Below are positions 18,587 to 47,910 of a DNA stretch of 64,000 nt, piece after piece. Below the pieces are notes generated by a model. That model ran no database searches. It saw only the letters and a list, made by a program, of their open reading frames with translations, and was not told where the DNA came from. Source of the DNA: Firmicutes bacterium UBA4882 (GTDB lineage Bacteria > Bacillota > UBA4882); contig DHDG01000039.1 of NCBI GenBank assembly GCA_002399265.1, positions 33,847 to 97,846 of the forward strand. Reading direction: 5' to 3'. Made by a program: the position numbers and the translations under genes. Position 1 is the stretch's first letter, and every line of letters begins with the position of its first letter.

Positions 18587-18663
<77 letters not shown>

Positions 18664-18671
18664 TTGAAATC

Positions 18672-18704
18672 AAGGGTTTTGGCTTTTGCCGAAACCCTTT
18701 TTTG
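18672..18704 (+). terminator. Rho-independent terminator after tRNA-Pro
   Basis: The stem aagggttttggc/gccgaaaccctt is followed by TTTTT. Confidence 0.65.
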
Positions 18705-18871
18705 ATAAGTTTTTTGATAGGCATTTCATAGATGCGCCACATCTGCGGGCCGCCGTCCCTTTCCGTTGCGTTTTAAATCCCCGAATCCGAATCAATAGCA
18801 GGAGAGCTGAAAGTTTTGGGGAAATAAAAACAAGATAGTATTTCTTCATTGGTTCCCAAACTAGGGGGGAT

Positions 18872-20410
18872 GTGAAGTTGGTTCGAAAAAAACAACGGTT
18901 ATTCCTATATTTGATGATACTAATCGCAGCTTTAATCGCATTACGGGTTGCTCCGGCAAACGTGGCCGCTCAGACGTCTGCCACAACCTCGACGACTCCG
19001 CAAGCATTGCAGGGCAAGCAGCAACCGGCGGCGCAGCCGTCAGTGGAACCATCCATTCCTCTTTTTGGCAAGCAGGTGCTTTGGGAAGGCTTGCCGCAAT
19101 CTGAGGTCGGATTGCATTTTGCAGACCTCGATTTGGACGGGCTATCCGAAGTCATCTCTGTCTCAGAAGGAAGTGCCAAAATTTACAAGGCGTTTAATCG
19201 CCACTTTGAACTGCAGGCTACCATATTTTTAGAAGGCAAGAATTTCGTTTCCATTAATTCTGCAGATTTAGACGCCGATGGAAGCATTGAAATAATTCTG
19301 GGTACTGACGACCTTGGCTATTTAGCAATATACCGGTGGGATAACCGCCCGGTTCCCGTTGCTGTTAGTCGCCACACCTGGAAACCTGTTGAGCATATTA
19401 TCATTATTGATACTGAAGGAGACGGACTGAAGGAGATCTTCTCTGTCGCCTCTGATGGCGATGCCACCTTGTTTCGTTTTTCAGGTACTTCTATCGACGC
19501 AATCTGGCGCGGAGCAAAGGCGTTTCCTGATATCAAGACTTTTGCGACCATTCAGCTTGACGGAAGTGGACCGGAAGAACTACTGACTGTTGATAAGACC
19601 AGAAATGGTTTTGTGATCTATTCGTGGCAAAAAGGCGTTCTGAAAAAAATGTTGGAAAACTTGCCTTGGGGTGGCATTCTAGACTTTGTCGTCTGTGACA
19701 TCGATGGCGACGGAGCTGATGACATTCTAGCCATATCCGCCAGACGCATGTTTTACGCTTTTACTTGCATCGAGGGGGGCGTGCAGCAGAAAATTGCACC
19801 ATTTGAAACGCCAACCTTATGCGGCCGGATTTTCCAGTCTACTGACTTTCCGGGATCCTTTGCTTTAATTAGCAACTCATCATCGCAAGTGTTCAGTTAT
19901 TTTTGGAATAACGGTTCCCCAAAGGAACTAGCCCGCAGCACTACTTTTGGCCGTTCGCGTTTATTTACACTACTGCGTAATGAGGAGCTACTTTTCATTC
20001 TCAATACGGGAGAAATGATTTCGGTGGCCATGACGGCCCCTGAAAAACCGGATTTGATTGGCGTAATACTTAAAGATCGGCTGACAGTCTGGGAGCATTC
20101 ACCGCAGTTAGTGGAAGGCCATCCATACCTGCCATTGAGTGAGCTTGAGAGTATTCTTCCTCTGGAATGTGTTTTGTCTACAGAAAGTGGGGTAGGATAT
20201 CTTACGGCTTGGACAGGCACTTTTGCTTTCAAAACCGATAGCCCAATACTACTATTTACGATATTGCCCGACTGCACGCCGGAAATTCTGGCCAACCCGG
20301 TCCGCACATTTAGTGACGGGCAAGTTTACCTTCCATTAGAAATGATTAACCGGGTCCTACCCGGAAGAATTAAATGGGATGGCGACCGGGTAATATTGAT
20401 TGTCGGATGA
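18872..20410 (+). CDS. Secreted FG-GAP/VCBS-like repeat protein with C-terminal copper-amine-oxidase N-terminal-like (stalk) domain
   Basis: A signal peptide is present. Repeated DxDGDG calcium-binding-like motifs occur (DLDGLSE, DLDADGS, DIDGDGADD). The C-terminal ...GQVYLPLEMINRVLPGRIKWDGDRVILIV motif is present. The start is GTG after AGGGGGGA. Confidence 0.6.
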   Translation: MKLVRKKQRLFLYLMILIAALIALRVAPANVAAQTSATTSTTPQALQGKQQPAAQPSVEPSIPLFGKQVLWEGLPQSEVGLHFADLDLDGLSEVISVSEGSAKIYKAFNRHFELQATIFLEGKNFVSINSADLDADGSIEIILGTDDLGYLAIYRWDNRPVPVAVSRHTWKPVEHIIIIDTEGDGLKEIFSVASDGDATLFRFSGTSIDAIWRGAKAFPDIKTFATIQLDGSGPEELLTVDKTRNGFVIYSWQKGVLKKMLENLPWGGILDFVVCDIDGDGADDILAISARRMFYAFTCIEGGVQQKIAPFETPTLCGRIFQSTDFPGSFALISNSSSQVFSYFWNNGSPKELARSTTFGRSRLFTLLRNEELLFILNTGEMISVAMTAPEKPDLIGVILKDRLTVWEHSPQLVEGHPYLPLSELESILPLECVLSTESGVGYLTAWTGTFAFKTDSPILLFTILPDCTPEILANPVRTFSDGQVYLPLEMINRVLPGRIKWDGDRVILIVG

Positions 20411-20493
20411 TTGTCAACTGATTGCTGATTTGCCCTGGCGGGTCATAAGTGCGTTTCCCTCCTGCATAGTAATATTGTAGATGTAGGAGGGGA

Positions 20494-20895
20494 GTGTCCG
20501 ACATGAAAGATAACGCGGTTAGGGAAAATAGCTCTACGATTGGTGCCATTGTGCGCGGCTTGTTTATTTCCCTGCTGTTTGGCGTTGTGGTACTAATTCT
20601 GTTTACGATCGTTTTGTCCGTAATGGGCGCGCGTCCAACCGACGTACCGATGACGATTGTTCTTCTTTCGTATGTTACTGCCCTATTTGGCAGTATCACT
20701 GCTGGCAGACACTCGCCAAACCGCGGATGGCTGGCAGGCGGCTTAACTGGTGCTTTGTTTATGATCCTGCTGCTATTGTTCTTTGCCATGATTCCGGAAT
20801 CTGTTCTGAGCTGGCCTTTGGCGCTACTTCGCATTGCCTGCGCTTTTCCGGTGGGTGCGCTTGGCGGAATGCTGGGGGTCAACATTGGAACGTGA
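20494..20895 (+). CDS. Small integral membrane protein (4 predicted TM helices)
   Basis: The hydrophobicity pattern supports TM helices. AGGAGGGGAG lies upstream. Confidence 0.5.
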   Translation: MSDMKDNAVRENSSTIGAIVRGLFISLLFGVVVLILFTIVLSVMGARPTDVPMTIVLLSYVTALFGSITAGRHSPNRGWLAGGLTGALFMILLLLFFAMIPESVLSWPLALLRIACAFPVGALGGMLGVNIGT

Positions 20896-20979
20896 GTGGG
20901 TGAGTGAGCAGCAGGAGTAGGGGAGCTGATTGGGTAGTGTCTGGGTGGGGTGAGACTTAGAATGGTTTCAAATGCCTGC

Positions 20980-21008
20980 TTGACGTCCCTTTGTAGATCG
21001 AGTATAAT
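20980..21008 (+). promoter_or_regulatory. Sigma-A promoter for tRNA-Trp (TTGACG-17-TATAAT)
   Basis: Near-consensus hexamers with a 17-nt spacer lie ~20 nt upstream of the tRNA. Confidence 0.7.
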
Positions 21009-21026
21009 AAAAAAGCACTCACACGC

Positions 21027-21102
21027 AGGGGAGTAGCTCAATTGGTAGAGCATCGGTCTCCAAAACCGAGGGCTGCGGGTTCAAGTCCTGTCTCCCCTGC
21101 CA
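21027..21102 (+). tRNA. tRNA-Trp (anticodon CCA)
   Basis: The acceptor stem is aggggag/ctcccct. The anticodon loop reads cuCCAaa. The sequence ends in ...CCCCTGCCA, like Bacillus tRNA-Trp. Confidence 0.85.
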
Positions 21103-23804: not shown

Positions 23805-24008
23805 TTACTCCCTGGAATCGCCTTCGGGATGATCGTTGCTAGATGAGTCGTATATGATAATGCGGTAATTTGTGCCGTCCAGTGTTAATCCAAAAATCAA
23901 ATCCCGGTCTTTGAGGGTTTTGTTCAGGAATGTCACTAGTTGGTGCGTTTCTCCTTTAAGACGAAATGACTTTTCGCCTAAAATCGGAAGCTTGGTGTGC
24001 TGCGTCAT
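23805..24008 (-). CDS. Small hypothetical protein (67 aa) translationally coupled to surE (ATGA overlap)
   Basis: The ATG overlaps the surE TGA stop. No homolog is recognised. Confidence 0.45.
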   Translation of the reverse strand: MTQHTKLPILGEKSFRLKGETHQLVTFLNKTLKDRDLIFGLTLDGTNYRIIIYDSSSNDHPEGDSRE

Positions 24009-24874
24009 GGTGTACCTCCCGAAAGGTCGTCTACATTAAGAGCAGACCCATACGTGTTTTGGGCGTTTTTGGCGCTAGCGCCGGTCGGCTGTTTGAAAGG
24101 AACCGTAGCAAAACACGCTTCATCAATGACCTTACTGACGGCCGGTATGATATCCGCACGCGTCAGGTCAAATTGAAGCGGTGTCACAGACACTTTGTTC
24201 TGAAGGATAGCATCAAGATCGGTATCTTTTTCGCTGTTCATAACCGGCTCTCCGGCAATCCAGTAGTAGACTTTTCCCCGGGGGTCGACCCTCCTCTCAA
24301 TCACTTTGCTGTATTGGCGTCTTCCCAAACGTGCCACTGCGATGCCAGCAAGTTCCTCAGATCGCACTCCTGGGACATTAATGTTCAACAGCGTATTCTG
24401 TGGTAAAGGGTTTTTCAGCATAACAGCGGCAATTTCGGCGGCAACTTCTGCTGCCAACTCGAATCCGTCTCCAGAAAGGTCACAGAGCGAGACAGCCATC
24501 GCCGGAAAGCCAATCAGCGTGGCTTCAATGGCGGCTGATACAGTCCCGGAATAAAGAACATCTGTGCCTAGATTAGAGCCACGGTTAATGCCCGAGATTA
24601 CCAGATCCGGTTGCTCTGGTAGCAGCGCCCCTTCAATCGCCAGCTTGACGCAGTCTGCAGGTGTGCCGTCGACTTCCCAAGCCTGGGCCGCACCAGGAAT
24701 TTTGCGTTCTAACATACGTAGCGGGCGATGCAACGATATTGCATGCCCGCATGCACTCTGTTCGCGATCTGGAGCGATAACGTAGACTTTTCCCAGTTGT
24801 GAAATTCGATTACACAAAATATGCAAGCCTTCGGAATGGATGCCATCGTCATTCGCCAGTAGAAAAACAGCCAT
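24005..24874 (-). CDS. surE: 5'/3'-nucleotidase SurE
   Basis: The N-terminal motif LLANDDGIHSEGL is present, with full-length SurE similarity. Confidence 0.9.
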   Translation of the reverse strand: MAVFLLANDDGIHSEGLHILCNRISQLGKVYVIAPDREQSACGHAISLHRPLRMLERKIPGAAQAWEVDGTPADCVKLAIEGALLPEQPDLVISGINRGSNLGTDVLYSGTVSAAIEATLIGFPAMAVSLCDLSGDGFELAAEVAAEIAAVMLKNPLPQNTLLNINVPGVRSEELAGIAVARLGRRQYSKVIERRVDPRGKVYYWIAGEPVMNSEKDTDLDAILQNKVSVTPLQFDLTRADIIPAVSKVIDEACFATVPFKQPTGASAKNAQNTYGSALNVDDLSGGTP

Positions 24875-25530
24875 TATAAGTTTCTCACCCGTACTTTCAA
24901 AATTCCCTCAACATCTTTTAGTTCCCCAGCCAGTTGTGCAACCCCTGATCCACGTCCTGTTACATGTAGCGTCATATTAGCTTCTCCTTGATCGTCAGGT
25001 TCGATATTCACGTCCCGGATACTGAAATGCAGATTGCCAAGGACAACTGCAATAGCTCCCAATTGACCGGGACGATCCAGGATCCGGCACTCAATGATCA
25101 AAGTTTTCGAAGAAACAATATTTCTCTCGGCCTTATCCAGCAGCGTCAGGGTGCCTACAGCCATAAAGGCCGTAATCACAGCAGGAAGATAAAAACCGCT
25201 TCCCACCGCCAGACCAATTCCAGCAACCACCCAAAGACTCGCGGCAGTAGTCAGACCCCTGATGTTGGCACCTTCACGCATAATTGTGCCAGCTCCCAAG
25301 AAGCCAATTCCGCTAACCACCTGGGCTGCCAATCGAGCTGGATCGCGGGCTGTACCAAATTCGGGAAACGCATAGGCCGACACAATCATAATCAAGGCCG
25401 AACCGACACAAACGAGAATATGTGTGCGCAATCCCGCAGGTCGTCCGTGGCTTTCGCGCTCCAGTCCTATAAAGCCGCCCAAAATGCCGGCGCTAATCAA
25501 ACGGGCGATAATCTGCCAGTTATTGCCCAC
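24874..25530 (-). CDS. mgtC: MgtC/SapB-family membrane protein
   Basis: The MgtC signature ARLISAGILGGFIGLERE and an ACT-like C-terminal domain are present. The stop overlaps the surE start by 1 nt. Confidence 0.8.
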   Translation of the reverse strand: MGNNWQIIARLISAGILGGFIGLERESHGRPAGLRTHILVCVGSALIMIVSAYAFPEFGTARDPARLAAQVVSGIGFLGAGTIMREGANIRGLTTAASLWVVAGIGLAVGSGFYLPAVITAFMAVGTLTLLDKAERNIVSSKTLIIECRILDRPGQLGAIAVVLGNLHFSIRDVNIEPDDQGEANMTLHVTGRGSGVAQLAGELKDVEGILKVRVRNL

Positions 25531-25582: not shown

Positions 25583-27346
25583 TTATTGTGATAGATTTTG
25601 AATAAAATAACCAAACATCGCAGGCGTTATTCCGGGAAACGCTCTGCAAAGAGCTTCTATATCGATGGTATTGCTCTTAGCAAAAACGCGCAGTTGCTCC
25701 AGTGTATTTTCAATCTCAGGAATGGTCGAACCGCCAAGCGGGGTCAGGGTATTATTGCTCCATTTCAGTACCAGCTGGGACGATTGAAGCCAAAGGTTAG
25801 GATCAACCATTTCATCAATCAAGACAAGCTTGGGTGAAAGTGCTGCCAGCAACTCACATGACTCAGTATTTTGAGAATCCAGTAAAAACAGTGATGGCTT
25901 ATCCAGAAACTCCAATGCAATAGCAGGGACTGGCGCGTTCTTTGTCTTATTAATCCCTTGCAGCAGTGCAATGCTGAACCGGTCAGCGGCAATTGCTTTT
26001 CGCAGGCTTTTGGCCAAATCAGCGCGGGCCTCGGGAGAATCAGCATTCAGTGTGAGCTTTGCTAACAAACCTAAAAGTGACTCCAATTCCGATTGGATGC
26101 GACTTAATTGGAACTGCACAACTACCTTTTCCTGATCGGCAACCAGACCGCCATATTTGCCAGAATATCTGTTCAATAAATCTGACAGACGGCTCAGACT
26201 TTTTTCATATTTTCGCTGGGCCTTAGACGGGCTACTCTTGCCAGGATCCTTAAGCAGTTCACTTTCAATTTTAATGGTCTTTGATAGTGCCTTATAGACT
26301 TTTCTATTATCGAGAAACAGCGCCGGGTTAAACTGAATGGCCGGAACAGGCATTGCTTTTAGCCGACCTAAATCTTTAATAAGCGCATTCTCTTCACCCT
26401 TGAGTTTTCCATATTGATCAAGCAAGACCAAATGTTGTTCAAGAGTTTTGATTTCCTTTTCCAGGGAATCAAGCACTTCTTGCCTGAATGATAACTGCTG
26501 CCAGACCTGAACAAGCTGCTGCGATAGATCATATAGCTCTTTTTCTCCGCCGTAATAGGCAGGCGGATCCATCTGAGACAGACAGTCTTTTAAAGTGCCA
26601 ACAATTGGACCTGACATGACACAAGCCACAAATTTCTTGCGTTCATCTTTGAGAGAGAAGGACCATTTTATCAATGCAGCGGCGATTTCGGGGAGCGGAG
26701 CTGAATTCCAGTTCAGAGGCAGATATTTGTTTTTGAGTATAGCAACCTGCTGCTCAGTGATTTCTTTACCGACCAGCTGTGCAAAGCAGTCCGGTGAATG
26801 CGCAGGTACAACTTGAGGTACTGTGGCCCCGGAGAAAAAACTTCCGACATTCTGATTGCCCGCCAGAGTTTTGGAACCAGCCATGTCGTTCATGTTATTT
26901 AGAAAAGCAGTATAATCGCTTTTGGGTAACTCAAATTGCAGGACATCAGAAATCTCCTGATTACCCGTATTATCCAGCAGGTTCTGATGATCATACCCCG
27001 GAATTATTATTTCCCAACGCATCGGCAGCTGCTGCCCATATGCTGACATTAAATCGAAAATGTCATGTGAAAGCTTAAAGCAATGTATCACACAAATAAC
27101 GGTGCCCTGTCCGCCTGGGTGCGCGACAGGGCCACCGCATTCAAGCACTGTGTCACCGGCGACTAAGTAAACTGTTTTGTTCTTTTCGGCCCCGGTGATC
27201 TTTTTTTTGAGTAATGAGTTTAATTCATCACGGACTTTTTCATCTGAATCAATTGACGTTGCCCCAAGAATACTACGCAATTCGCTCCAGGATGCATGAT
27301 CAAATGTCAAGAAATAGTTGTCCGTGGATTGTCCTAAATTATGCAA
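25583..27346 (-). CDS. Hypothetical 587-aa soluble protein (N-terminal alpha/beta region, central coiled-coil-rich region); third gene of a cryptic three-gene operon
   Basis: No recognisable domain or nucleotide-binding motif. The ATG is preceded by GGGGGG 12 nt upstream. The gene follows gene B after a 60-nt spacer without a terminator. Confidence 0.6.
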   Translation of the reverse strand: MHNLGQSTDNYFLTFDHASWSELRSILGATSIDSDEKVRDELNSLLKKKITGAEKNKTVYLVAGDTVLECGGPVAHPGGQGTVICVIHCFKLSHDIFDLMSAYGQQLPMRWEIIIPGYDHQNLLDNTGNQEISDVLQFELPKSDYTAFLNNMNDMAGSKTLAGNQNVGSFFSGATVPQVVPAHSPDCFAQLVGKEITEQQVAILKNKYLPLNWNSAPLPEIAAALIKWSFSLKDERKKFVACVMSGPIVGTLKDCLSQMDPPAYYGGEKELYDLSQQLVQVWQQLSFRQEVLDSLEKEIKTLEQHLVLLDQYGKLKGEENALIKDLGRLKAMPVPAIQFNPALFLDNRKVYKALSKTIKIESELLKDPGKSSPSKAQRKYEKSLSRLSDLLNRYSGKYGGLVADQEKVVVQFQLSRIQSELESLLGLLAKLTLNADSPEARADLAKSLRKAIAADRFSIALLQGINKTKNAPVPAIALEFLDKPSLFLLDSQNTESCELLAALSPKLVLIDEMVDPNLWLQSSQLVLKWSNNTLTPLGGSTIPEIENTLEQLRVFAKSNTIDIEALCRAFPGITPAMFGYFIQNLSQ

Positions 27347-27406: not shown

Positions 27407-29221
27407 TCATTGGCCGCCTTTTAATTTAGCAATCATATCATCGATTTGCTTCTGGGACATGATCGGTTCTCCCTCATCTTTTGCCGGTCCTGCCATTATA
27501 GGAGCAGTTGTCTTGCCAGACGTGACTGGCAAAGGCGCCATCCCCATCCGGTTAGTTTGGAACGGCTGAACCTGCGACTGGCCCAAAGAAGGAGTCCTTA
27601 GACCAGGTTGACTTGTGGAAGGTTCCGGCATGGTTCGATTAACCGGCTGTGCGTTAAATGGCCGCGGTTGTGGCGGTTGTTGCTGCTGTGGTTGTTCCGG
27701 CAGGAACGGCTGTGCCGGCAACACGCTTCTTTGAAATTGAGCCATCGTGTCCGGATTGGAGGGCACCTGCCGAGCAAAAGGCTGCGACAGCGAGTTCGAG
27801 TTCGAGTTCAAGTTCGAATCAGCAGGTTTAGGATCATCACTATCGTTATTAGGGGCAAACTGCCTGAAAAGGTCGTCAATCGATTTCTGACTCATTGATA
27901 CTGCACTATAAGAACTTGGCTTAATACGATTCCCGGCCACATCTTTCATTGAATCGTTCATAGCGCGGCCTTCAGACGATGCTGCAACCTCTGGAACGGA
28001 ATAACCGGGCTTTTTAAGCAGCCTATCCGCTACATCTTGGGAAACATCGCCTTCTACAGCATAACTTTCGCTATATTTAATTTTTACCTTACCCTTATCA
28101 TTATAATCGGCGCTACCAGCACTGGGTTCGGAAACCAACTTTTCTGAAACACTCTCGACGTTTTTGGTAGCTTCATTTTCTCTCGGAAACACCCAGCCAT
28201 CCAATATGTTATTGGCAGGCTGTGCGTTGGCGGTTTGTGCACTGGTATTGCCAGAAATGAAGGGAGCACTATTTGCTTTGACGTCCAGAGAAAAGAGCGA
28301 ATCGCTCTGCTCTTGTTCCGGTACGGCGCTTCCGTTTGACAAATCTCCGCCGACCGAAAGGTCAAAATGAAGCTCTTCAGTTTGCGGAGCAGATTGCGCG
28401 TTCATTTCGAAACCCGGCACCGAACTTGCACCAACCTCCGCTGGTATTGCTGCTTCCTTAAAGAAAACAGGAGCTTGCTCAGCTGCCGGCGTTGATGGCA
28501 TCACCGGTGTCGGTGCAACTGGCATCGCTGAGGCCACGAATTCGTCGAAAGCAGGCGCAGGATCTGATTCTACTACTGGTGACGAAGGAGCAGCTTTGAC
28601 AATTTCCACCCAAGGCTTAGGCTGCGGCGCAGAAGGCCTTTCGCTGACTACTTCAGCCACTGGAGATACTGCAGGTTTTACCATTGGGGCCGCTGCAGGT
28701 TGTACCACTGGCGGTGGAGCTGGCGCTGCTGCGGGTTGTGCTGGCCTTTCGCTTTTGTAATAATGTGACTCTGAGGCGGATTCCTCCGGAAAGAAAAAGG
28801 AATAAAGCGCTTCTGCTGAAGGCGTGGGAATAAATTCATCTTCAGGCAAAAGGATTTCCCATGAAGCTTTAATTAAAACGCCTTCATTAAAGGCTGTCAC
28901 TGCATCACCATCGGAAGTTTGACGGCAGGAATGCACTCTCAATACCGAACCGGTATCCTTACGCACGAGCGTACAAGGTAGCACAAAGCATCTGGATAGC
29001 AGCAGCAGGTTGTTGCCTTCTTTAATAGCCCAAATATCCGACTCCAGAGTTTTCTGCAGCGTTGTTCTTGGATCGGAGGTGCGCGGATCGATTGGTAATT
29101 GTTTCTTTACTTCAGCGGGAATTTGAAACAGGATGCGCATGAATCCGTTCCAGCTGGCTTCTGTAAATTGCAGAGAGACTTCTTGTTCAATGCTAAATTC
29201 TCGTCCATGAAGTTGTTGCAT
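27407..29221 (-). CDS. Hypothetical protein: ~170-aa N-terminal globular domain followed by a ~430-aa Pro/Ala/Gln/Ser/Asn-rich disordered region
   Basis: The ATG (MQQLHG...) lies 1 nt after the gene C stop, with GGGGGG inside the gene C 3' end. The low-complexity region is extreme (PAQPAAAPAPPPVVQPAAAP..., NSNSNS, QPQQQQPPQPRP). No TM segment. The track ORF starts 14 codons earlier. Confidence 0.6.
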   Translation of the reverse strand: MQQLHGREFSIEQEVSLQFTEASWNGFMRILFQIPAEVKKQLPIDPRTSDPRTTLQKTLESDIWAIKEGNNLLLLSRCFVLPCTLVRKDTGSVLRVHSCRQTSDGDAVTAFNEGVLIKASWEILLPEDEFIPTPSAEALYSFFFPEESASESHYYKSERPAQPAAAPAPPPVVQPAAAPMVKPAVSPVAEVVSERPSAPQPKPWVEIVKAAPSSPVVESDPAPAFDEFVASAMPVAPTPVMPSTPAAEQAPVFFKEAAIPAEVGASSVPGFEMNAQSAPQTEELHFDLSVGGDLSNGSAVPEQEQSDSLFSLDVKANSAPFISGNTSAQTANAQPANNILDGWVFPRENEATKNVESVSEKLVSEPSAGSADYNDKGKVKIKYSESYAVEGDVSQDVADRLLKKPGYSVPEVAASSEGRAMNDSMKDVAGNRIKPSSYSAVSMSQKSIDDLFRQFAPNNDSDDPKPADSNLNSNSNSLSQPFARQVPSNPDTMAQFQRSVLPAQPFLPEQPQQQQPPQPRPFNAQPVNRTMPEPSTSQPGLRTPSLGQSQVQPFQTNRMGMAPLPVTSGKTTAPIMAGPAKDEGEPIMSQKQIDDMIAKLKGGQ

Positions 29222-29222
29222 C

Positions 29223-30581
29223 TTAATTCCCCCCGCCAGGATTGATAAGAGGGTTAATATCACTCATAACCCAGAACTTTTGCAGACCGGGAGCCAGAAA
29301 CTCCCACCACCCGGAATCCTTGACGCCACTTCGATAACGATGTCGAACTGCAACCGCTGGAATATCATGACTCAATACCGAAAGCTTGCCGACATTCAAA
29401 TCTGATTCAGTGTAGATATTTGTTCCGGCCTTCAAATAGTCAAAAGCGATCTGATCCTGCTTTATCCAGCCATCTAGTTGTGAATTCTGTACGTAAAGCC
29501 ACGGTTCCTGCAAGGAGTCATAATCTCTTTCGAGAATATCCAGTTTTTCACCGGATTGAAAGCGACCCTGAGGATCCCCTCCGCCAACTCTCGGGAAAAC
29601 ATTGACAACGCCTTTGGCATAACCGCGGATTGTTGTAACCGAAAACTCCTCACTGATAGGCAGTCGCAACGTTTTTGCTATCTCAGGAGCAGTCTCCCCC
29701 ACCCAATACTTGGCGATATACCAGGCTTGCTGAAAATACATCGGTTTGAACTGGTAGGCCCCGAAAAAAACTCCACCAATAATCATCAGGACCAGAGCTA
29801 CCTTAGCCAACTTTGACGAAGATCTGCTTCTGGATCTGGATATAGACTTTGATTTGGCACGGCGTTCAAATCGTCTTTGGGCTGGCCGCGGCTCCGTTCG
29901 TGGACCGGTGCTGCACTCAAAAGCAGTTACGTGAAAACGCTCTAACTCAATTGAATCCAAGACTTTCGGAAACTTGCCGAAATAGGCGTCTAAATCGGAC
30001 GGTTTCAAGATCCTGTATGGAAAAGGCAAGAAATTATATTGCTTGTCTTGCGGAAAATCATGCAAAATTATGATGCTCGGTATAACATTGAGGGTTGCTT
30101 TTTTTACGCGTGCCTGTGTCCATTGGCAGACAGCGAGGATTGTTTCCTGCAACTCTGTTTTGGAATCAGCAAGATTCTGACCCTCTAAATCAGCCCTGTC
30201 AAATATAACGAAGATACCTGCAGAACCTGACGCAATAAGGGCCGGATCCCTTTTTTGGATAGACCAGTCATCCGGCATTTGTATCAGTTTCCCGGCTGCC
30301 TGAATTTTGGCTTGATGTTCAAATACCCACTGGGCATCCTGATCATTTTTCGAAAACAAAGCGATCATGAAAAGAGCAACTACAGCTAACAGAAATAAAA
30401 GCCCGCCCGCCATTGCGAATCTGAAATCAACAAACCCGCCAATGGCCAGGATTACCATAGCTGTTGTTATAACCAGCCCGCCGATTGAGATCAGCAACAG
30501 GAAATTGAAAATGCGGTTTTTCGGAGAAAAACCCTTAGCGGGTGAAACATCCGCTATAATGCTCGTCAATAACCCGGCCAA
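29223..30581 (-). CDS. Membrane protein with 3 TM helices: cytoplasmic NERD-like segment between TM2 and TM3, basic Ser/Arg-rich linker, extracytoplasmic LysM-like + SH3b-like C-terminal region
   Basis: The start is TTG after AGGTGG, 6 nt upstream. The motif GSAGIFVIFDRADLEG...W resembles the NERD core GIFVIEVK...W. The C-terminal GEKLDILERDYD...WLYVQNSQLDGWIKQDQIAF is SH3b-like. The segment GETAPEIAKTLRLPISE is LysM-like. Confidence 0.55.
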   Translation of the reverse strand: MAGLLTSIIADVSPAKGFSPKNRIFNFLLLISIGGLVITTAMVILAIGGFVDFRFAMAGGLLFLLAVVALFMIALFSKNDQDAQWVFEHQAKIQAAGKLIQMPDDWSIQKRDPALIASGSAGIFVIFDRADLEGQNLADSKTELQETILAVCQWTQARVKKATLNVIPSIIILHDFPQDKQYNFLPFPYRILKPSDLDAYFGKFPKVLDSIELERFHVTAFECSTGPRTEPRPAQRRFERRAKSKSISRSRSRSSSKLAKVALVLMIIGGVFFGAYQFKPMYFQQAWYIAKYWVGETAPEIAKTLRLPISEEFSVTTIRGYAKGVVNVFPRVGGGDPQGRFQSGEKLDILERDYDSLQEPWLYVQNSQLDGWIKQDQIAFDYLKAGTNIYTESDLNVGKLSVLSHDIPAVAVRHRYRSGVKDSGWWEFLAPGLQKFWVMSDINPLINPGGGN

Positions 30582-30699
30582 TTACAGCCACCTGCACTTC
30601 CAAGAAACATACTCCAAATAAAGATACCTTTTACTATTTATCGGCAAAAGGCACTGTCATCTTTAGCTGTTATAGAGAAATATCTCCAGACATTTAGGT

Positions 30700-30729
30700 A
30701 AAAAAACAAGCCCGGGCTCTTCCCGGGCT
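30700..30729 (-). terminator. Rho-independent terminator after speH, upstream of the three-gene operon
   Basis: The stem gcccggg/cccgggc is followed by UUGUUUUUUU on the minus strand. Confidence 0.65.
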
Positions 30730-32966: not shown

Positions 32967-33914
32967 TTATTCGCCGTTACAGATTGACCTTCCTTCTAGC
33001 ATTGCTGATATTTGTCCACTCATTTCGGTAGTGCTCTTGCCCGTATGATCCAGCCAAACCGCGTTTTCTTCCCGGCGAAACCAAGTTAACTGCCTTTTGG
33101 CAAATCTGCGTGTGTTACGCTTAATTATTTCAACCGTCTCTGCCAGCGTCGCCCTCCCGTAAAGATAATGCACGATTTCAGCATACCCCAGAGCGGAAAG
33201 CGGGCCTTTATGAGTATTGTACCCTTTGGCTAATAGGTACTGCGTTTCAGCGATCCATCCAGCGGCCATCATTTTTTCGGTTCGCAAGTTAATGCGTTCA
33301 TACAATTCACTACGGTCCCTATCCAAACAAAGCATCAGGCAGTTATATCTTTCTTCAGAACTCTGAAGACATTTGGCTTGTTGGCTGACCGGGAAACCAC
33401 TCTGGTGATAAACTTCTAGTGCCCGAATAATTCTGACCCTGTCGTTCACATGAATGCGTGCTGCAGACACCTGATCAACTTCCTGCAGCTTTTCCCAAAG
33501 GTGTTTATTACCGTACATCTCAGCTTCCTGTTCCAATTCGTAGCGATAGTGCTCGTCCCGACCGGGGCTTGGAAAAAGAAAACCTGTTACGGCAGCACGA
33601 ATATATAATCCGGTTCCGCCCACCAAAATCGGAATGTGACCGCGCCCGACAATCTCCGGCACAATGCGGCTGACATCGGCAGCGAACTGGGCGGCATTAT
33701 AAATCTCATCAGGTTCGGCAATATCGATCAAATGATGCCGCACCAGCAATTGCTCTTCTTTGGACGGTTTGGCGGTACCGATATCGAAATAACGATAGAC
33801 CTGCATCGAATCGCCGGAAATGATCTCGCCGCCTAATTTTTGAGCAATATGTAGAGCCACATCACTTTTGCCGCTGGCGGTTGGCCCGACAATCGCCAAG
33901 AGCGGATACTTCAT
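32967..33914 (-). CDS. miaA: tRNA dimethylallyltransferase MiaA
   Basis: The P-loop GPTASGKS is present. The ATG at 33914 is preceded by AGGTGA. The track ORF starts 8 codons earlier, abutting the mutL stop. Confidence 0.9.
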
Positions 33915-43320: not shown

Positions 43321-44058
43321 TTACGGGAACAGCACTCCCAAGACGCCAGCGGCAACGGCTAATACGATCGCGATAATGCTCCAGACACGAGCGTCTTTTT
43401 GCGCTTTTTCGGCATCTGCCTTGGCAGTTTCCAATTCGGAATTCAGCTGCGCTATTTCAGCGTCGTGTTTTTCATCCGCCGCTGCGGAATCCTCTGTAAG
43501 TGCGGCCACAGAATTCTCAAGAGCGGAAAGATCCGTTTCCATGCCTGTCAATTTTTGTTCTGCTTCGGTAACCCTGTTTTTGAGGGCGATGATTTCCTGC
43601 AAGGATTTGGCCATTTCATCCCGCACCTGACCGGTCTCTGTTTTCCAGGCTGCCATATCAGCACCCATCGCAGTGCGATCACGCTCGTATTGTGCGAGCG
43701 CTTCTTCCAGATTTTTTGTGCGCAAAGAAAGAGCTACTAGTTCTTGCCGAAATTCACCAGTTAGCCGGCGCATCAGATCAGCGTCTTCCTGATTCATGCT
43801 AATGGAACCCGCCACTGAGTCACCGAGCAGTCTTGAGACAACCACGGCCAACGTGAAACGATCGACCGGTTGGTTCCCCCTGAAAGTATTGTCAGCGTAT
43901 AATCCTAAGTACCCTTCTGAAACAAGCTTTTTCACGGCCTGGTACGCCCAATGGTTTGACTGGACATCCGCAATCTGCGGATCAGCCGCTGACGCGACAG
44001 CAGCTGTCGAAACTGCCAGGGTGAGTGCCAGTATGAGAGCGATCGACAAACGTTTCAT
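43321..44058 (-). CDS. SLH-domain protein with coiled-coil region and C-terminal TM anchor
   Basis: A signal peptide and an SLH motif (WAYQAVKKLVSEGYLGLYADNTFRGNQPVDRFTLAVVVSRLL) are present. The ATG at 44058 is preceded by AGGAGG. Confidence 0.7.
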   Translation of the reverse strand: MKRLSIALILALTLAVSTAAVASAADPQIADVQSNHWAYQAVKKLVSEGYLGLYADNTFRGNQPVDRFTLAVVVSRLLGDSVAGSISMNQEDADLMRRLTGEFRQELVALSLRTKNLEEALAQYERDRTAMGADMAAWKTETGQVRDEMAKSLQEIIALKNRVTEAEQKLTGMETDLSALENSVAALTEDSAAADEKHDAEIAQLNSELETAKADAEKAQKDARVWSIIAIVLAVAAGVLGVLFP

Positions 44059-44143
44059 GCCCGTACCTCCTGCCTTTTTATTCAATCTTATTTGGCATGC
44101 CGCCACTGACTGCTATGGCGCAATCAGCTTATGGCGCAACCTA

Positions 44144-46126
44144 CTATTGATCCTTATTCTCGCTGACTGCGGTGACTGGCACAGGTTTTCCAGACGGATC
44201 CAGCAAGCGCAGAACGGCACTCTGCATGGCCAGCGGACCGTTACCGCCGGACTTTCTCCTGACCCAAACCGTGGCAAAATTCTCAAACTGTTTGCCTGTC
44301 GCTGTGGAACGGGTAGCTTCCAGCAACACCGCGTTCCCTTCCATGACAGGCTCTCTCAGCCAAGATAAAACTTTGCCGTCTTGCACCATAAACCCGCCTC
44401 TTTGAACAGCCAGCAGTTCTGTATCCGAATCAAAAGTTACCCGCAGCGCGAGCTGGGACGCTTCTGGCAGATTGACCAGGTCAATATCCACTTGGTACCA
44501 TCCTGGCCGTTCCGTGACCGGTGCAGAAACGCTCCTTATCTGACGAGGTAAATCAGGCCATTGAATCGCATTGGACCCAGAAATTACCTTGTTTTCATTA
44601 CATCCCGTCAAGATCTTGAACCCGGTAGAACCTACCCCACCCGAAGAAACAACGGACCAGCGTACCAACACTTCAGTGCCGGGGGCAAGTTTGCCAATAT
44701 AGCGGCGTGACGACTCTCCAGGGGCCAGTTCAATGCCGTTACCCGGAGCCAGCTCAGCCCAGGTATCAGTTGCAACATCTCCGCCATCATTGGAGACAAT
44801 CGCCTGCACTGCCACAGGATACGGTTCATATCGTCCCGTGACTGATTTAACCATAGGCGGGTCCAAGACCGTCAATCCCAGTTTGGGAGGGGCAATCAGC
44901 TTGATTTTGCGTTCGACGATGACCGGGTCACTTTCAAAGGCGTGACCGCGAACATTAATGGTTGCTGTCCCGGAGCCTACCGCTGTGAAAGTCCAAGCGG
45001 CTTGACGCGTTTCGCCCGGCTTTAGTGACCCAATATCTACTTTAATGGGGTTCAAAAGCCGCAATGAATTGGGAACGTCAATAGTCAGTGATACGTCACG
45101 TGCTACACCTTCACCGCGGTTTTCCAGATAGGCTAATACAATGTACTGCTCGGTAGTTCCCGACTGAACAGACGCCGGCGCGGTGACACCCAGTGTCAAC
45201 TCGCCCTTAGAAATGGTGACGCCACCCAGGCCATAATATGTTACCCGTGACAGAGCGGCTCCGGGAGGTAAATCCGTTGCATCCCACATTAGAGCTACGG
45301 CACTATCATATTCAAATTCACCAACTCTGGTAAAGTCTCTGCCCGCAATCAAGACGGGGTTCCATGGCTGATCCGCAAAGGTGCCCCAGTTGGAAAAGAA
45401 AAGACGATCAGGGGTGGTCAGCTCACCGCCGGCAAGTGTCCCCTGGGCGATGACTTTGGGCTCTTCCAGAGAATCAAAAGCCTGCCAGTATGACTGGATA
45501 GTTGAGCCCTGCGCGCCATAATCCGTAAGGATCTGTTTCTCGCCCATACGGAACGGAGCACCGTCATTTTCCCCAAGCATGGCGTCAATGCAAACCCGCA
45601 AACCGACTGAATGGTAGACTTGTCCTCTGTTCACCATGGTATACGCAATTCTGGCGGTATCCGGCAACCCGGTAGTTGGCCCGTCAACAATCGAGATGTA
45701 TTGCGTTACTTCCAGATCACCATAGCGCCACGCCGTGACAATTGCCCCGTCGCGCACTTCCGGTTTTTGAATCATCAGGCCGGTGGCCAACCCCTCGCCG
45801 GCACGCTTTGATACCGGACCGCCAAACGCGAACAATAAGCCGTTCATATTAATCGTGGTATAAGAGGTCCAGGGAAGAGGGCGGCCATAAATCAAAGGCT
45901 GGTTATCGTCGTCATCACGTTCAGGATCTCCGCCTGTTACATCAACCGCAAAACGGCCGCGCCCATCCGCGGTATTATTGACAAAAACCTTGATATATTC
46001 GTTTTCAATTGTCACCAAGGACTGGTCTTCCGCAGAAACCAGCGCACCCAATAAAAAGGCGACCGCAATTACGGCTGTCCAAAGCAGGGTAAATGAAGTA
46101 TACTTCTTCGCGTGTCTCATTCTCAT
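44144..46126 (-). CDS. Large secreted protein (660 aa, signal peptide, beta-rich; no recognisable catalytic motif), translationally coupled to tonB
   Basis: The ATG overlaps the tonB TGA (ATGA). The N-terminus is signal-peptide-like (KKYTSFTLLWTAVIAVAFLLGALVSA). The protein does not look like a TonB-dependent receptor (no plug, no C-terminal aromatic residue). Confidence 0.6.
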   Translation of the reverse strand: MRMRHAKKYTSFTLLWTAVIAVAFLLGALVSAEDQSLVTIENEYIKVFVNNTADGRGRFAVDVTGGDPERDDDDNQPLIYGRPLPWTSYTTINMNGLLFAFGGPVSKRAGEGLATGLMIQKPEVRDGAIVTAWRYGDLEVTQYISIVDGPTTGLPDTARIAYTMVNRGQVYHSVGLRVCIDAMLGENDGAPFRMGEKQILTDYGAQGSTIQSYWQAFDSLEEPKVIAQGTLAGGELTTPDRLFFSNWGTFADQPWNPVLIAGRDFTRVGEFEYDSAVALMWDATDLPPGAALSRVTYYGLGGVTISKGELTLGVTAPASVQSGTTEQYIVLAYLENRGEGVARDVSLTIDVPNSLRLLNPIKVDIGSLKPGETRQAAWTFTAVGSGTATINVRGHAFESDPVIVERKIKLIAPPKLGLTVLDPPMVKSVTGRYEPYPVAVQAIVSNDGGDVATDTWAELAPGNGIELAPGESSRRYIGKLAPGTEVLVRWSVVSSGGVGSTGFKILTGCNENKVISGSNAIQWPDLPRQIRSVSAPVTERPGWYQVDIDLVNLPEASQLALRVTFDSDTELLAVQRGGFMVQDGKVLSWLREPVMEGNAVLLEATRSTATGKQFENFATVWVRRKSGGNGPLAMQSAVLRLLDPSGKPVPVTAVSENKDQ

Positions 46127-46869
46127 GGCTGCGCTTCGCTCCTTTCCCACTGCTCGCTGCCCTGAAAAACAACTTTGACTTCGCCGCTGCGGAAAATGAG
46201 GGCGATCTTTATTTTCACAGGGAATGCCGGACGCGTATATTGCCATGCCTCTTTCAGAGCACGCAGTGAATAGGAATCCAGCCTTTGATCACCGGAAGCT
46301 GATAGCAGTACCACCTGAATCTCACCTTCCGGAGTCAACCTGACCTCTGTCAATACTTCTCCTTCTGAGCCTTCGTTCTGAGCATTTTTAGGATAAGTCA
46401 CCGGTTGACTGAGAACAAAGCCTTCCCCACTGCCGAGTCCCAGTCCCTTGTTTCCGCCTTGCGATGCACCGTTATTGCCGGCGCCCGATCCAGGCGAGCC
46501 AGGCGATGAATCAGACGGCACCGGCGGCACTGTGGAGCTATCTTGGGGCAATGTTTTGATCGGTTCATTAGTCTTGGGCTGCTGGGCGGTTTTTATTGGC
46601 GGGGATTCCTTTGGAGGTGGTTCTTTTTGCTGCGGCCGTTGTTGCTGTTCTTGAGCAGCTTCATTGACATTAATCTGCACAGCAGCAGTTTGCTCGGCGC
46701 GGCCGTCAGAAATCGTTGGACCCAGTTCGACAAAGCCGACCTCCAAAACTTCCATGCCGTTGCCTGCGGAAAGTCCTCCGCCAGGTACTGACGCCAACAG
46801 CAATAAGACTACATGCAGGATCAGTGATATGGTCCAGGAAATACCTTTACGCCAACCTGCGCTCATCAA
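46123..46869 (-). CDS. tonB: TonB-like energy transducer (TM anchor, Pro-rich spacer, TonB C-terminal domain)
   Basis: The architecture and the C-terminal domain pattern fit TonB. The gene follows exbD with a 4-nt overlap. Confidence 0.7.
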   Translation of the reverse strand: MMSAGWRKGISWTISLILHVVLLLLASVPGGGLSAGNGMEVLEVGFVELGPTISDGRAEQTAAVQINVNEAAQEQQQRPQQKEPPPKESPPIKTAQQPKTNEPIKTLPQDSSTVPPVPSDSSPGSPGSGAGNNGASQGGNKGLGLGSGEGFVLSQPVTYPKNAQNEGSEGEVLTEVRLTPEGEIQVVLLSASGDQRLDSYSLRALKEAWQYTRPAFPVKIKIALIFRSGEVKVVFQGSEQWERSEAQP

Positions 46870-47294
46870 TCAATCACCCCGTCATCGGAGGGACCTTGAT
46901 CCACGCGGCGTACACCCAGCGCAGGTCTTTCTGCTCCTCCCTCCCTAATCAGGTCCAGAGCGGCCACCAGGTCTTCGTATGCCACTTTGCGATCCGGATA
47001 CAAGACTACTTGCATCTGCGGGTTATCGATCAATGATTGCGTAACCCGCGCGGAGACTTCCGCAGCAGGAATCCGCAGACCTTCGATGAAATATTGCCCC
47101 TCGGTATCAAGCGCCACAACCAATTGCTCAATCTCAGCGACCGGGGCAGTGCTTGAGTCTGGAAGAGAAACCGGAATGGAAGCTGCTCCATTATCAAAAG
47201 TACCATAGATCACGAAAAAGAAGACCAGCATTACCATTACATCGATCAGAGGTACAATGTCAACCCTGGCTTTACGCTTCCAGTATCGAGCCAT
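46866..47294 (-). CDS. exbD: Biopolymer transport protein ExbD/TolR
   Basis: The N-terminus IVPLIDVMVMLVFFF is typical, and the size matches. Confidence 0.85.
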   Translation of the reverse strand: MARYWKRKARVDIVPLIDVMVMLVFFFVIYGTFDNGAASIPVSLPDSSTAPVAEIEQLVVALDTEGQYFIEGLRIPAAEVSARVTQSLIDNPQMQVVLYPDRKVAYEDLVAALDLIREGGAERPALGVRRVDQGPSDDGVID

Positions 47295-47910
47295 GGTTAC
47301 CCCTCCGATCTTTTAACATTGCCGAGAAATCAATTGTCTCACGTTCCAGCATCTCGGCGACGGATTCAGCGCGATGCACAAAATAGTTCATGGCCACCAG
47401 TGTAGGAATCGCAATAATTAATCCTGATGCAGTAGTAATCAGCGCTTCAGCAATACCCAAGCCAACCGATTCCATCCTGGCCATCGCCGAGGCTGCGCCA
47501 AGCAAGCGGAAAGTATTGAGAATGCCAGTAACAGTACCCAACAGTCCCAGAAGGGGCGCTGCCGTTACGATTGTGTCCAGAATGGAGAGCCCCGAAAATA
47601 ACTTTTTTCTTTCCAGACTGGCGGCCGCTTGCATTTCAAGCTCAGCATTTTCAGGATTTGCCGCTGCCAGGCCATTTGATAAAACCCGCATTACTGGACC
47701 GTCCGAATCGTTAAACAGTAGAACCGCTTCATTGGTAGCACCGGCGGCAATCAGCTTCCGGGCTGCTCTGAGACGATCCGATAATCCATTTTCCGTTTTG
47801 CGCAGCCGGACAAAAAAGATGATCCTTTCTACTATCACCGCCAGAGCCGTGACAGAACACAGCAACAGAGGATACATAACGGGCCCGCCTTTGGAAATTA
47901 TTGTGAACAT
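47272..47910 (-). CDS. exbB: MotA/TolQ/ExbB proton-channel protein
   Basis: Three TM helices and the conserved C-terminal helix region are present. RBS AAGGAGGA lies 7 nt upstream. Confidence 0.85.
   Translation of the reverse strand: MFTIISKGGPVMYPLLLCSVTALAVIVERIIFFVRLRKTENGLSDRLRAARKLIAAGATNEAVLLFNDSDGPVMRVLSNGLAAANPENAELEMQAAASLERKKLFSGLSILDTIVTAAPLLGLLGTVTGILNTFRLLGAASAMARMESVGLGIAEALITTASGLIIAIPTLVAMNYFVHRAESVAEMLERETIDFSAMLKDRRGNHGSILEA

Follow-up and report, generated by a model that had tools for sequence, protein, structure and literature searches.

The membrane-anchored protein SmdA of Staphylococcus aureus (SAOUHSC_01908) has a cytoplasmic NERD-like domain in which several of the most conserved NERD residues are missing (PMC9040797). 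It binds EzrA via its cytoplasmic part and penicillin-binding proteins via its transmembrane (TM) helix, and is required for normal septation and peptidoglycan synthesis (PMC9040797). Here, we analyse gene C, which is located in a 64,000-nucleotide stretch of contig DHDG01000039.1 from Firmicutes bacterium UBA4882 (positions 33,847 to 97,846; this whole stretch is called the window in the following), together with genes B and A downstream of it. Our preferred explanation, which we hold tentatively and at slightly less than an even chance, is that the gene C product is a non-catalytic, envelope-spanning scaffold that passes the membrane three times, is tethered to the cell wall outside, and recruits the B and A proteins inside. 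Like SmdA, which works in division and wall synthesis by protein interactions and not as a nuclease, it would be a membrane-tethered protein with a degenerate nuclease-type domain in the cytoplasm. However, SmdA has a single N-terminal TM helix and no extracytoplasmic domain, whereas the gene C product is predicted to have three TM helices and to expose about 170 residues on the outside. In addition, SmdA reaches the Pfam NERD model at E~1e-5 while the gene C product does not match it, and SmdA is monocistronic while gene C forms a coupled unit with B and A. Compared by its published description only, SmdA seems to be the best available functional analogy.

Other described proteins resemble single parts of the gene C product. 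The NERD protein pXO1-01 of Bacillus anthracis (NERD, PF08378) shares with it an N-terminal hydrophobic helix and the element order helix, β-β-β, helix, β, and there are local matches to NERD at L-x-L-P-D-D-W, GIFVI, and W-x-Q in the same register. In contrast, pXO1-01 scores 115 bits against PF08378, which no member of the gene C family matches, and this family either lacks the D...ExK residues or does not conserve them. We know of no NERD proteins with a second membrane passage or SH3 domains outside. The inactive PD-(D/E)xK scaffolds ERCC1, FAAP24, EME1, and Zip2 are, unlike the gene C product, eukaryotic, soluble, and associated with DNA repair; there is no sequence similarity to them, and the likeness comes from the predicted model only. 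The SH3b wall-binding domains (SH3_3 and the lysostaphin SH3b domain) are matched by residues 336-380, which have the W-x-x-V...G-W signature and are predicted to be outside. However, the scores are below threshold (15 vs 27 bits), and the protein has no lytic or other enzymatic domain joined to them. The lysostaphin SH3b domain is also found among the non-significant Foldseek matches of the full-length gene C model.

Gene C and the architecture of its product

Gene C is a real and constrained protein-coding gene (Table 1). Its orthologues in other lineages share 58-70% identity with it and are found in identical synteny. The ratio of nonsynonymous to synonymous substitution rates (dN/dS, Nei-Gojobori) is 0.23 in the comparison with a 68% identical orthologue and 0.20 with a 58% identical one. 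The lowest values, 0.12-0.15, belong to residues 258-311, which comprise TM3 and the juxtamembrane helix, followed by 0.14-0.22 for the outside domains. The basic linker, for which residues 201-257 were used, has the highest values overall (0.24-0.44). An earlier note on the same DNA, made from the letters and a list of open reading frames (ORFs), had reported the ORF at this position, to which we add that it is on the minus strand, and every peptide string quoted there is present in the translation: GSAGIFVIFDRADLEG corresponds to residues 119-134, CQW to 152-154, SRSRSRSSSK to 247-256, GETAPEIAKTLRLPISE to 295-311, and GEKLDILERDYD...WLYVQNSQLDGWIKQDQIAF to 344-380. It had also proposed a TTG start with a good Shine-Dalgarno sequence and a 6-nt spacer, and reading the minus strand confirms this order with AGGTGG (30593-30588), CTGTAA, and TTG (30581-30579). 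The TTG start is well supported because the N-terminus MA(G/R)LLT is kept in the orthologues. Upstream, speH is followed by a strong terminator-like hairpin, and therefore gene C starts its own transcription unit.

Hydropathy (Kyte-Doolittle, 19-residue window) and charge distribution support a three-pass membrane protein with the N-terminus inside and the C-terminus outside. The N-terminus is basic throughout the family, and both the hydrophobic hairpin of TM1 and TM2 and the third hydrophobic helix are kept in all six members. Twelve lysines and arginines are concentrated within residues 225-258. In each of the six members the 25 residues preceding TM3 contain 8-10 lysines and arginines, compared with 1-4 following TM3. 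The positive-inside rule is established knowledge, and because of this bias residues 77-257 are assigned to the cytoplasm and residues 279-452 to the outside. The hydropathy peaks agree with the TM helices expected before at about residues 25-75 (TM1 and TM2) and 262-282 (TM3), and the placement of the NERD-like part inside and of the C-terminal modules outside is now backed by hydropathy and charge bias in six members. When C, B, and A were scanned against Pfam, NCBIfam, PADLOC, and PHROGs, no match exceeded its threshold. The weak matches of the TM hairpin to DUF4231 (E=0.19 in two of the six members; 12.6 bits vs a cutoff of 24.7), a SLATT-clan family of effectors with two TM helices, and to PHROG 3093 (E=0.006) were set aside as compositional, as were those to DUF4131 and DUF2207_C, since they span the hydrophobic hairpin only.

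For the cytoplasmic domain a PD-(D/E)xK-type fold is likely, as judged from the predicted models. An AlphaFold model of this domain alone (residues 78-226, six sequences) has a predicted local distance difference test score (pLDDT) of 68 and a predicted template modelling score (pTM) of 0.68, and its elements follow each other as helix, β-β-β, helix, β, β, helix. The same order is found in the full-length model, which was built from five close sequences and was judged unusable at a pLDDT of 45; its Foldseek matches, including Hjc, a splicing endonuclease, and XisH, are all non-significant. The residues that are invariant in the family (W85, L99, D105, W106, G119, G122, W154, P168, and L197) are mostly structural. 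A search of the PDB with the sequence profile of the domain returned chance-level matches only, and by sequence no relative with a solved structure was found for NERD either.

A distant resemblance to NERD at the level of the fold is what remains of the proposal in the earlier note that this part is NERD-like, but the profile matches are negative and D...ExK is not conserved. None of the six members matches Pfam NERD (PF08378) at E<=10. A hidden Markov model (HMM) of 33 verified NERD proteins, which are pXO1-01, the founding NERD protein, and its relatives, gives at most -0.7 bits against the family. In a profile alignment by hhalign IASGSAGIFVIFDRA...CQWTQ pairs with IVxSxxGIFVIETKN...xWTQ of NERD in the expected register, with a score of 17, P=0.056, and a probability of about 1%. 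Unrelated pairs score 10.5-13.1 in the same comparison, and of 40 NERD alignments with shuffled columns one scores at least 17. Because the HMM result is negative, P is 0.056, and one in 40 shuffles scores as high, membership in NERD is not demonstrated. As far as the sequences tell, the GIFVI resemblance is either a coincidence of the length of a β-strand or a very remote echo.

The catalytic residues of PD-(D/E)xK nucleases, the aspartate before β2 and ExK on β3, are not conserved across the gene C family. In the register of NERD the aspartate before β2 corresponds to D112, which is glycine or leucine in P0005 and P0006, the two most distant family members found by the profile search described below. 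The position of the NERD glutamate is occupied by phenylalanine or leucine and by alanine or glutamine in distant members, and that of the NERD lysine by arginine in the window protein, lysine in its close relatives, and alanine in distant members. Conservation of catalytic residues in homologues, which had been suggested as a check of the nuclease-like part, is thus not found family-wide. Because all parts of the family keep the partner in the operon, the shared function is probably not catalysis, which has presumably been lost in this domain.

Outside, the first conserved segment was thought to be LysM-like, but neither Pfam nor a PDB profile search bears this out: no member of the six matches LysM (PF01476), a β-α-α-β unit with a length of some 44 residues, at E<=10, and the PDB search with residues 279-335 returned chance-level matches without any LysM chain. 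In the first full-length model this segment consists of short helices only, predicted with low confidence, and we describe it as a conserved juxtamembrane helix followed by a turn. The SH3b-like segment fared better, with recurrent matches to SH3_3 and to SH3 domains in the PDB, but it is weakly supported given that every score is sub-threshold. In the window protein, the 15-bit match to Pfam SH3_3 (PF08239) covers residues 336-375 with E=0.028. When scanned singly, four of the six members have SH3_3 matches (all sub-threshold, best E=0.0015), and SH3_6, SH3_2, and SH3_1 match the same stretch. The PDB profile search with residues 279-452 found two matches at E<=10, which are both SH3 domains (2ekh with E=0.02 and 2gtj with E=1). 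These matches agree with each other, though they are sub-threshold, and lend weak to moderate support to one SH3-like barrel outside. The C-terminal domain is composed of β-strands in the first full-length model (pLDDT 58-80) and contains the invariant residues G386, T387, E392, D394, D406, WWE (425-427), P431, W437, S440, and P444. Its sequence profile (residues 380-447) has chance-level matches to the PDB only. It may be a second SH3-like unit; an internal duplication that would have given rise to the two outside β-domains was considered and is not demonstrated (hhalign P=0.059). The architecture stands as unusual, as the earlier note had stated, but is better described as a degenerate PD-(D/E)xK-like domain, a TM helix, and one or more SH3-like domains, with no LysM.

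Table 1. Gene C, the parts of its product, and adjoining features, in coordinates of the window
Feature	Position	Strand	Description
Intrinsic-terminator-like hairpin	30709..30729	-	8 bp, 7 GC, T-run, 3' of speH; between speH and gene C
Shine-Dalgarno sequence AGGTGG	30588..30593	-	6 nt upstream of the gene C TTG; direct sequence reading
Gene C coding sequence	29223..30581	-	452 aa, TTG start, TAA stop; ORF list, orthologues of 58-99% identity, dN/dS 0.20-0.23
TM hairpin	30354..30503	-	TM1 residues 27-45, TM2 residues 58-76; hydropathy peaks 2.57 and 2.76; kept in all members
Cytoplasmic α-β-β-β-α-β domain	29979..30350	-	residues 78-201; probable degenerate PD-(D/E)xK (restriction-endonuclease-like) fold
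Basic Ser/Arg-rich linker	29811..29906	-	residues 226-257, directly before TM3; poorly conserved
TM3	29754..29810	-	residues 258-276; hydropathy peak 2.08
Juxtamembrane helix and P-x5-L-x2-P segment	29649..29747	-	residues 279-311; strongly conserved; invariant P299, L305, P308
SH3-like domain	29445..29648	-	residues 312-379; sub-threshold Pfam and PDB-profile matches
C-terminal β-rich domain	29241..29444	-	residues 380-447; WWE...P...W.S signature
Gene B	27407..29221	-	604 aa; ATG 1 nt after the gene C stop
Gene A	25583..27346	-	587 aa; N-terminal domain paralogous to that of B, coiled-coil-like middle, conserved C-terminal part

The partner genes B and A

A homologue of gene B is found downstream of gene C in all five loci that are informative in this respect, which are the window itself and the loci L001, L007, L003, and L004. 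In the window B begins 1 nt after the stop of C. This arrangement recurs in L001 and L007, and the ORF listed for B in L007 begins further upstream and overlaps the end of C. The ORF that follows C on the two divergent contigs shares 4 nt with it and encodes a protein that can be aligned to the N-terminal domain of B. Because a B homologue adjoins C in divergent contigs too, the pair of C and B is a family-wide unit. Judged by the arrangement of the reading frames, C is translationally coupled to B in all five loci. Gene A follows B in the three lineages for which long contigs are available, and mgtC and surE (24874-25530 and 24005-24874, both on the minus strand) start 52 nt after A with no terminator-like site in between, an order that is kept in L001 and L007. 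Genes C, B, A, mgtC, and surE may be transcribed as one unit.

The B protein consists of an N-terminal domain with about 90% conservation, a middle part that is rich in insertions and deletions and in proline, alanine, and glutamine, and a conserved C-terminal peptide. The N-terminal domains of A and B (about 115 residues) are paralogous, as they align by hhalign over 109 collinear columns with P=1.6e-4. This shared domain does not match anything in Pfam or the PDB, where A and the N-terminal domain of B have chance or coiled-coil matches, and for the rest of A there are weak matches of the coiled-coil type only. The JGI calls A a "regulator of replication initiation timing"; this name probably reflects a coiled-coil artefact and was not used. 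The cytoplasmic domain of the gene C product is not similar to the N-terminal domain of B and A by hhalign (P of about 0.36-0.38).

The C-terminal peptide of B, EP[IL]MSQ[KNS]QID[DA][LM]IA[KNS]LKGGQ (27407-27460, minus strand), is conserved in three lineages, and an internal copy of it, SMSQKSIDDLF, is present at about 27850-27900 on the same strand. The C-terminal CheY-binding peptide of CheZ is similar to it. In addition, the B peptide resembles LSQxEIDALL, the motif of FliM that binds phosphorylated CheY (PMC6700473). This resemblance is short, and no che genes were seen near gene B.

A proposed envelope scaffold and its alternatives

In the scaffold that we propose the juxtamembrane helix, the SH3-type domain, and the β-rich domain would jointly tether the gene C product to a ligand in the cell wall, most likely peptidoglycan. 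On the other side of the membrane, the degenerate PD-(D/E)xK-type domain, flanked by TM2 and the basic linker, would be held close to the membrane. Its nuclease catalytic residues would have been lost and the domain would serve as a docking surface. The most economical clients would be B and A, which would bind through their shared N-terminal domain, with B carrying a disordered tail and A a coiled-coil tail. In this view the gene C product would bind the wall and interact with B and A; by analogy with SmdA, it may have a role in envelope organisation or morphogenesis.

Several points weigh against the scaffold. Only two of five AlphaFold models of the cytoplasmic domain are confident and the other three have pLDDT values of 41-48, the underlying alignment consists of six sequences, and Foldseek found nothing significant with the domain model (best E=0.054). 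Outside, the SH3 matches stay under the Pfam threshold and the full model is of low confidence in this part. The host organism is uncultured. Lastly, D112 and, adjoining the canonical positions, a D-K/R pair (D128-K/R129) are retained in the close members, so that residual catalysis may persist in this subgroup. The three poor models and the lack of any Foldseek match below E=0.05, together with the fact that no sequence profile ties the domain to a nuclease family, could also mean that it has a novel fold that is not related to nucleases. We consider this rather unlikely, given that the top Foldseek matches (Bax1, TIP26, MUS81-EME1, XisH, and Upx) are all of one kind, two independent models have the same element order, and the β2-β3 hairpin is in register with that of NERD.

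It would be in the opposite direction to assume that the domain is still active, and that the gene C product is a membrane-bound NERD-type nuclease or a membrane-disrupting effector with two TM helices, acting in phage defence, abortive infection, or DNA uptake. The hhalign match of GIFVI..W.Q to GIFVIETK..WTQ of NERD is in the right register and scores above the unrelated controls, the predicted fold is PD-(D/E)xK-like, the close members have kept the residues just mentioned, and the TM hairpin weakly matches DUF4231 in two of six members. However, the acidic and lysine residues at the canonical positions vary within the family, the bit scores of the NERD HMM are negative, and the DUF4231 match reaches about half of its cutoff and spans hydrophobic helices only. 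The genomic context also speaks against such a function. Gene C, B, and A are embedded in the core genome between mutS-mutL-miaA-hfq-(Met gamma-lyase)-speH and mgtC-surE-DUF4264-lexA, and the synteny is identical down to 58% identity. The GC content of the gene C region is like that of its flanks, PADLOC did not match C or B and matched A only to the coiled-coil-type LmuB with E>0.01, and no phage or plasmid relatives were found. A mobile or defence origin is disfavoured because of these observations, and a foreign origin of the locus, which had been considered, was rejected on the basis of the GC content and the missing phage and plasmid relatives. All in all, an active nuclease or effector seems highly improbable.

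A different role for the same topology would be that of a transmembrane sensor. The SH3-like domains would sense a wall-derived or periplasmic ligand, TM3 and the linker would relay the signal to the cytoplasmic domain, and this would regulate B, whose C-terminal peptide would recruit a CheY-like receiver. The bitopic, receptor-like architecture would fit, as would the strong constraint on TM3 and the juxtamembrane helix, which are the most constrained segment (dN/dS 0.12-0.15), and the core MSQ[KNS]QID[DA][LM]IA of the B peptide with its conservation in three lineages and its resemblance to FliM (PMC6700473). But no signalling domain such as a kinase, HAMP, GGDEF, or receiver domain is recognisable in C, B, or A, che and response-regulator genes are missing from the window ORFs scanned with Pfam and from the syntenic loci, and the FliM-like stretch of B is short. 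We therefore regard a sensor as unlikely.

Returning to the scaffold, an extended version of it would make C, B, and A a hitherto undescribed, lineage-specific trans-envelope apparatus of a probably diderm clade of Bacillota. The gene C product would be a wall-anchored hub with a dead nuclease domain that binds two paralogous scaffolds, and the FliM/CheZ-type CheY-binding peptide of B would let a response regulator control a non-flagellar structure of the envelope or cytoskeleton. This is a speculative extension and quite improbable in all its parts.

The gene C family, its hosts, and its meaning

The gene C family is very small. Four relatives with 59-99% identity came from a word-indexed search of 5.8 billion clusters, and two more with 25-28% identity (P0005 and P0006) from an exhaustive search of 1.84 billion representatives with a HMMER profile. 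A further profile search did not find relatives beyond these, and in total the family consists of six clusters (P0001-P0006) among about 15 billion proteins. Scans of genome and metagenome contigs added three loci, the truncated L002, the near-identical L006, and L007 with 58% identity and the same synteny, but none that is more divergent than the known members. Each named copy is labelled "hypothetical protein", and the sources are metagenome-assembled genomes (MAGs) of uncultured Firmicutes/Bacillota. In L002 (Bacillota MAG JBMNNY010000006.1, 8001-9005) the orthologue is located at the end of the contig and contains an in-frame stop (YAR*VV) at a position where P0004, whose sequence is otherwise identical, has glycine. 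The stop probably stems from faulty assembly or sequencing close to where the contig ends, or the orthologue is possibly a pseudogene in this MAG.

With respect to the host, the minus strand of the window encodes one protein with an SLH domain (43321-44106), one of the TonB_C type (46123-46869), and one of the MotA/ExbB type (47272-47910). A 700-residue ORF between these genes (44144-46246) does not match Pfam. The presence of SLH, TonB_C, and ExbB genes in a Bacillota genome suggests a diderm, that is outer-membrane-bearing, host, in which case the outside domains of the gene C product would be periplasmic. Elsewhere in the window (18587-21099), a gene for a 512-residue FG-GAP-repeat protein (18872-20410) is located between two tRNA genes (18587-18660 and 21027-21099), which may mark a hotspot of integration or an insertion between the tRNAs.

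Gene C is the founder of a family that has no annotation, combines known fold types in an uncommon way, and is coupled to two orphan partners. The practical impact of this is limited because the host is uncultured and the family is tiny. If the scaffold explanation is true, C, B, and A would define an unannotated three-gene module that is restricted to an uncultured Bacillota lineage of fermentation and digester metagenomes. In this module a pseudo-nuclease fold and a wall-binding SH3-type domain would be joined in one protein across the membrane, with a genetic link to two orphan partners. It would be the second independent case after SmdA in which a nuclease-type fold (PD-(D/E)xK/NERD-like) has been reused in envelope biology as a membrane-proximal docking module, and it would extend the idea that bacterial "pseudo-nucleases" can act as scaffolds.

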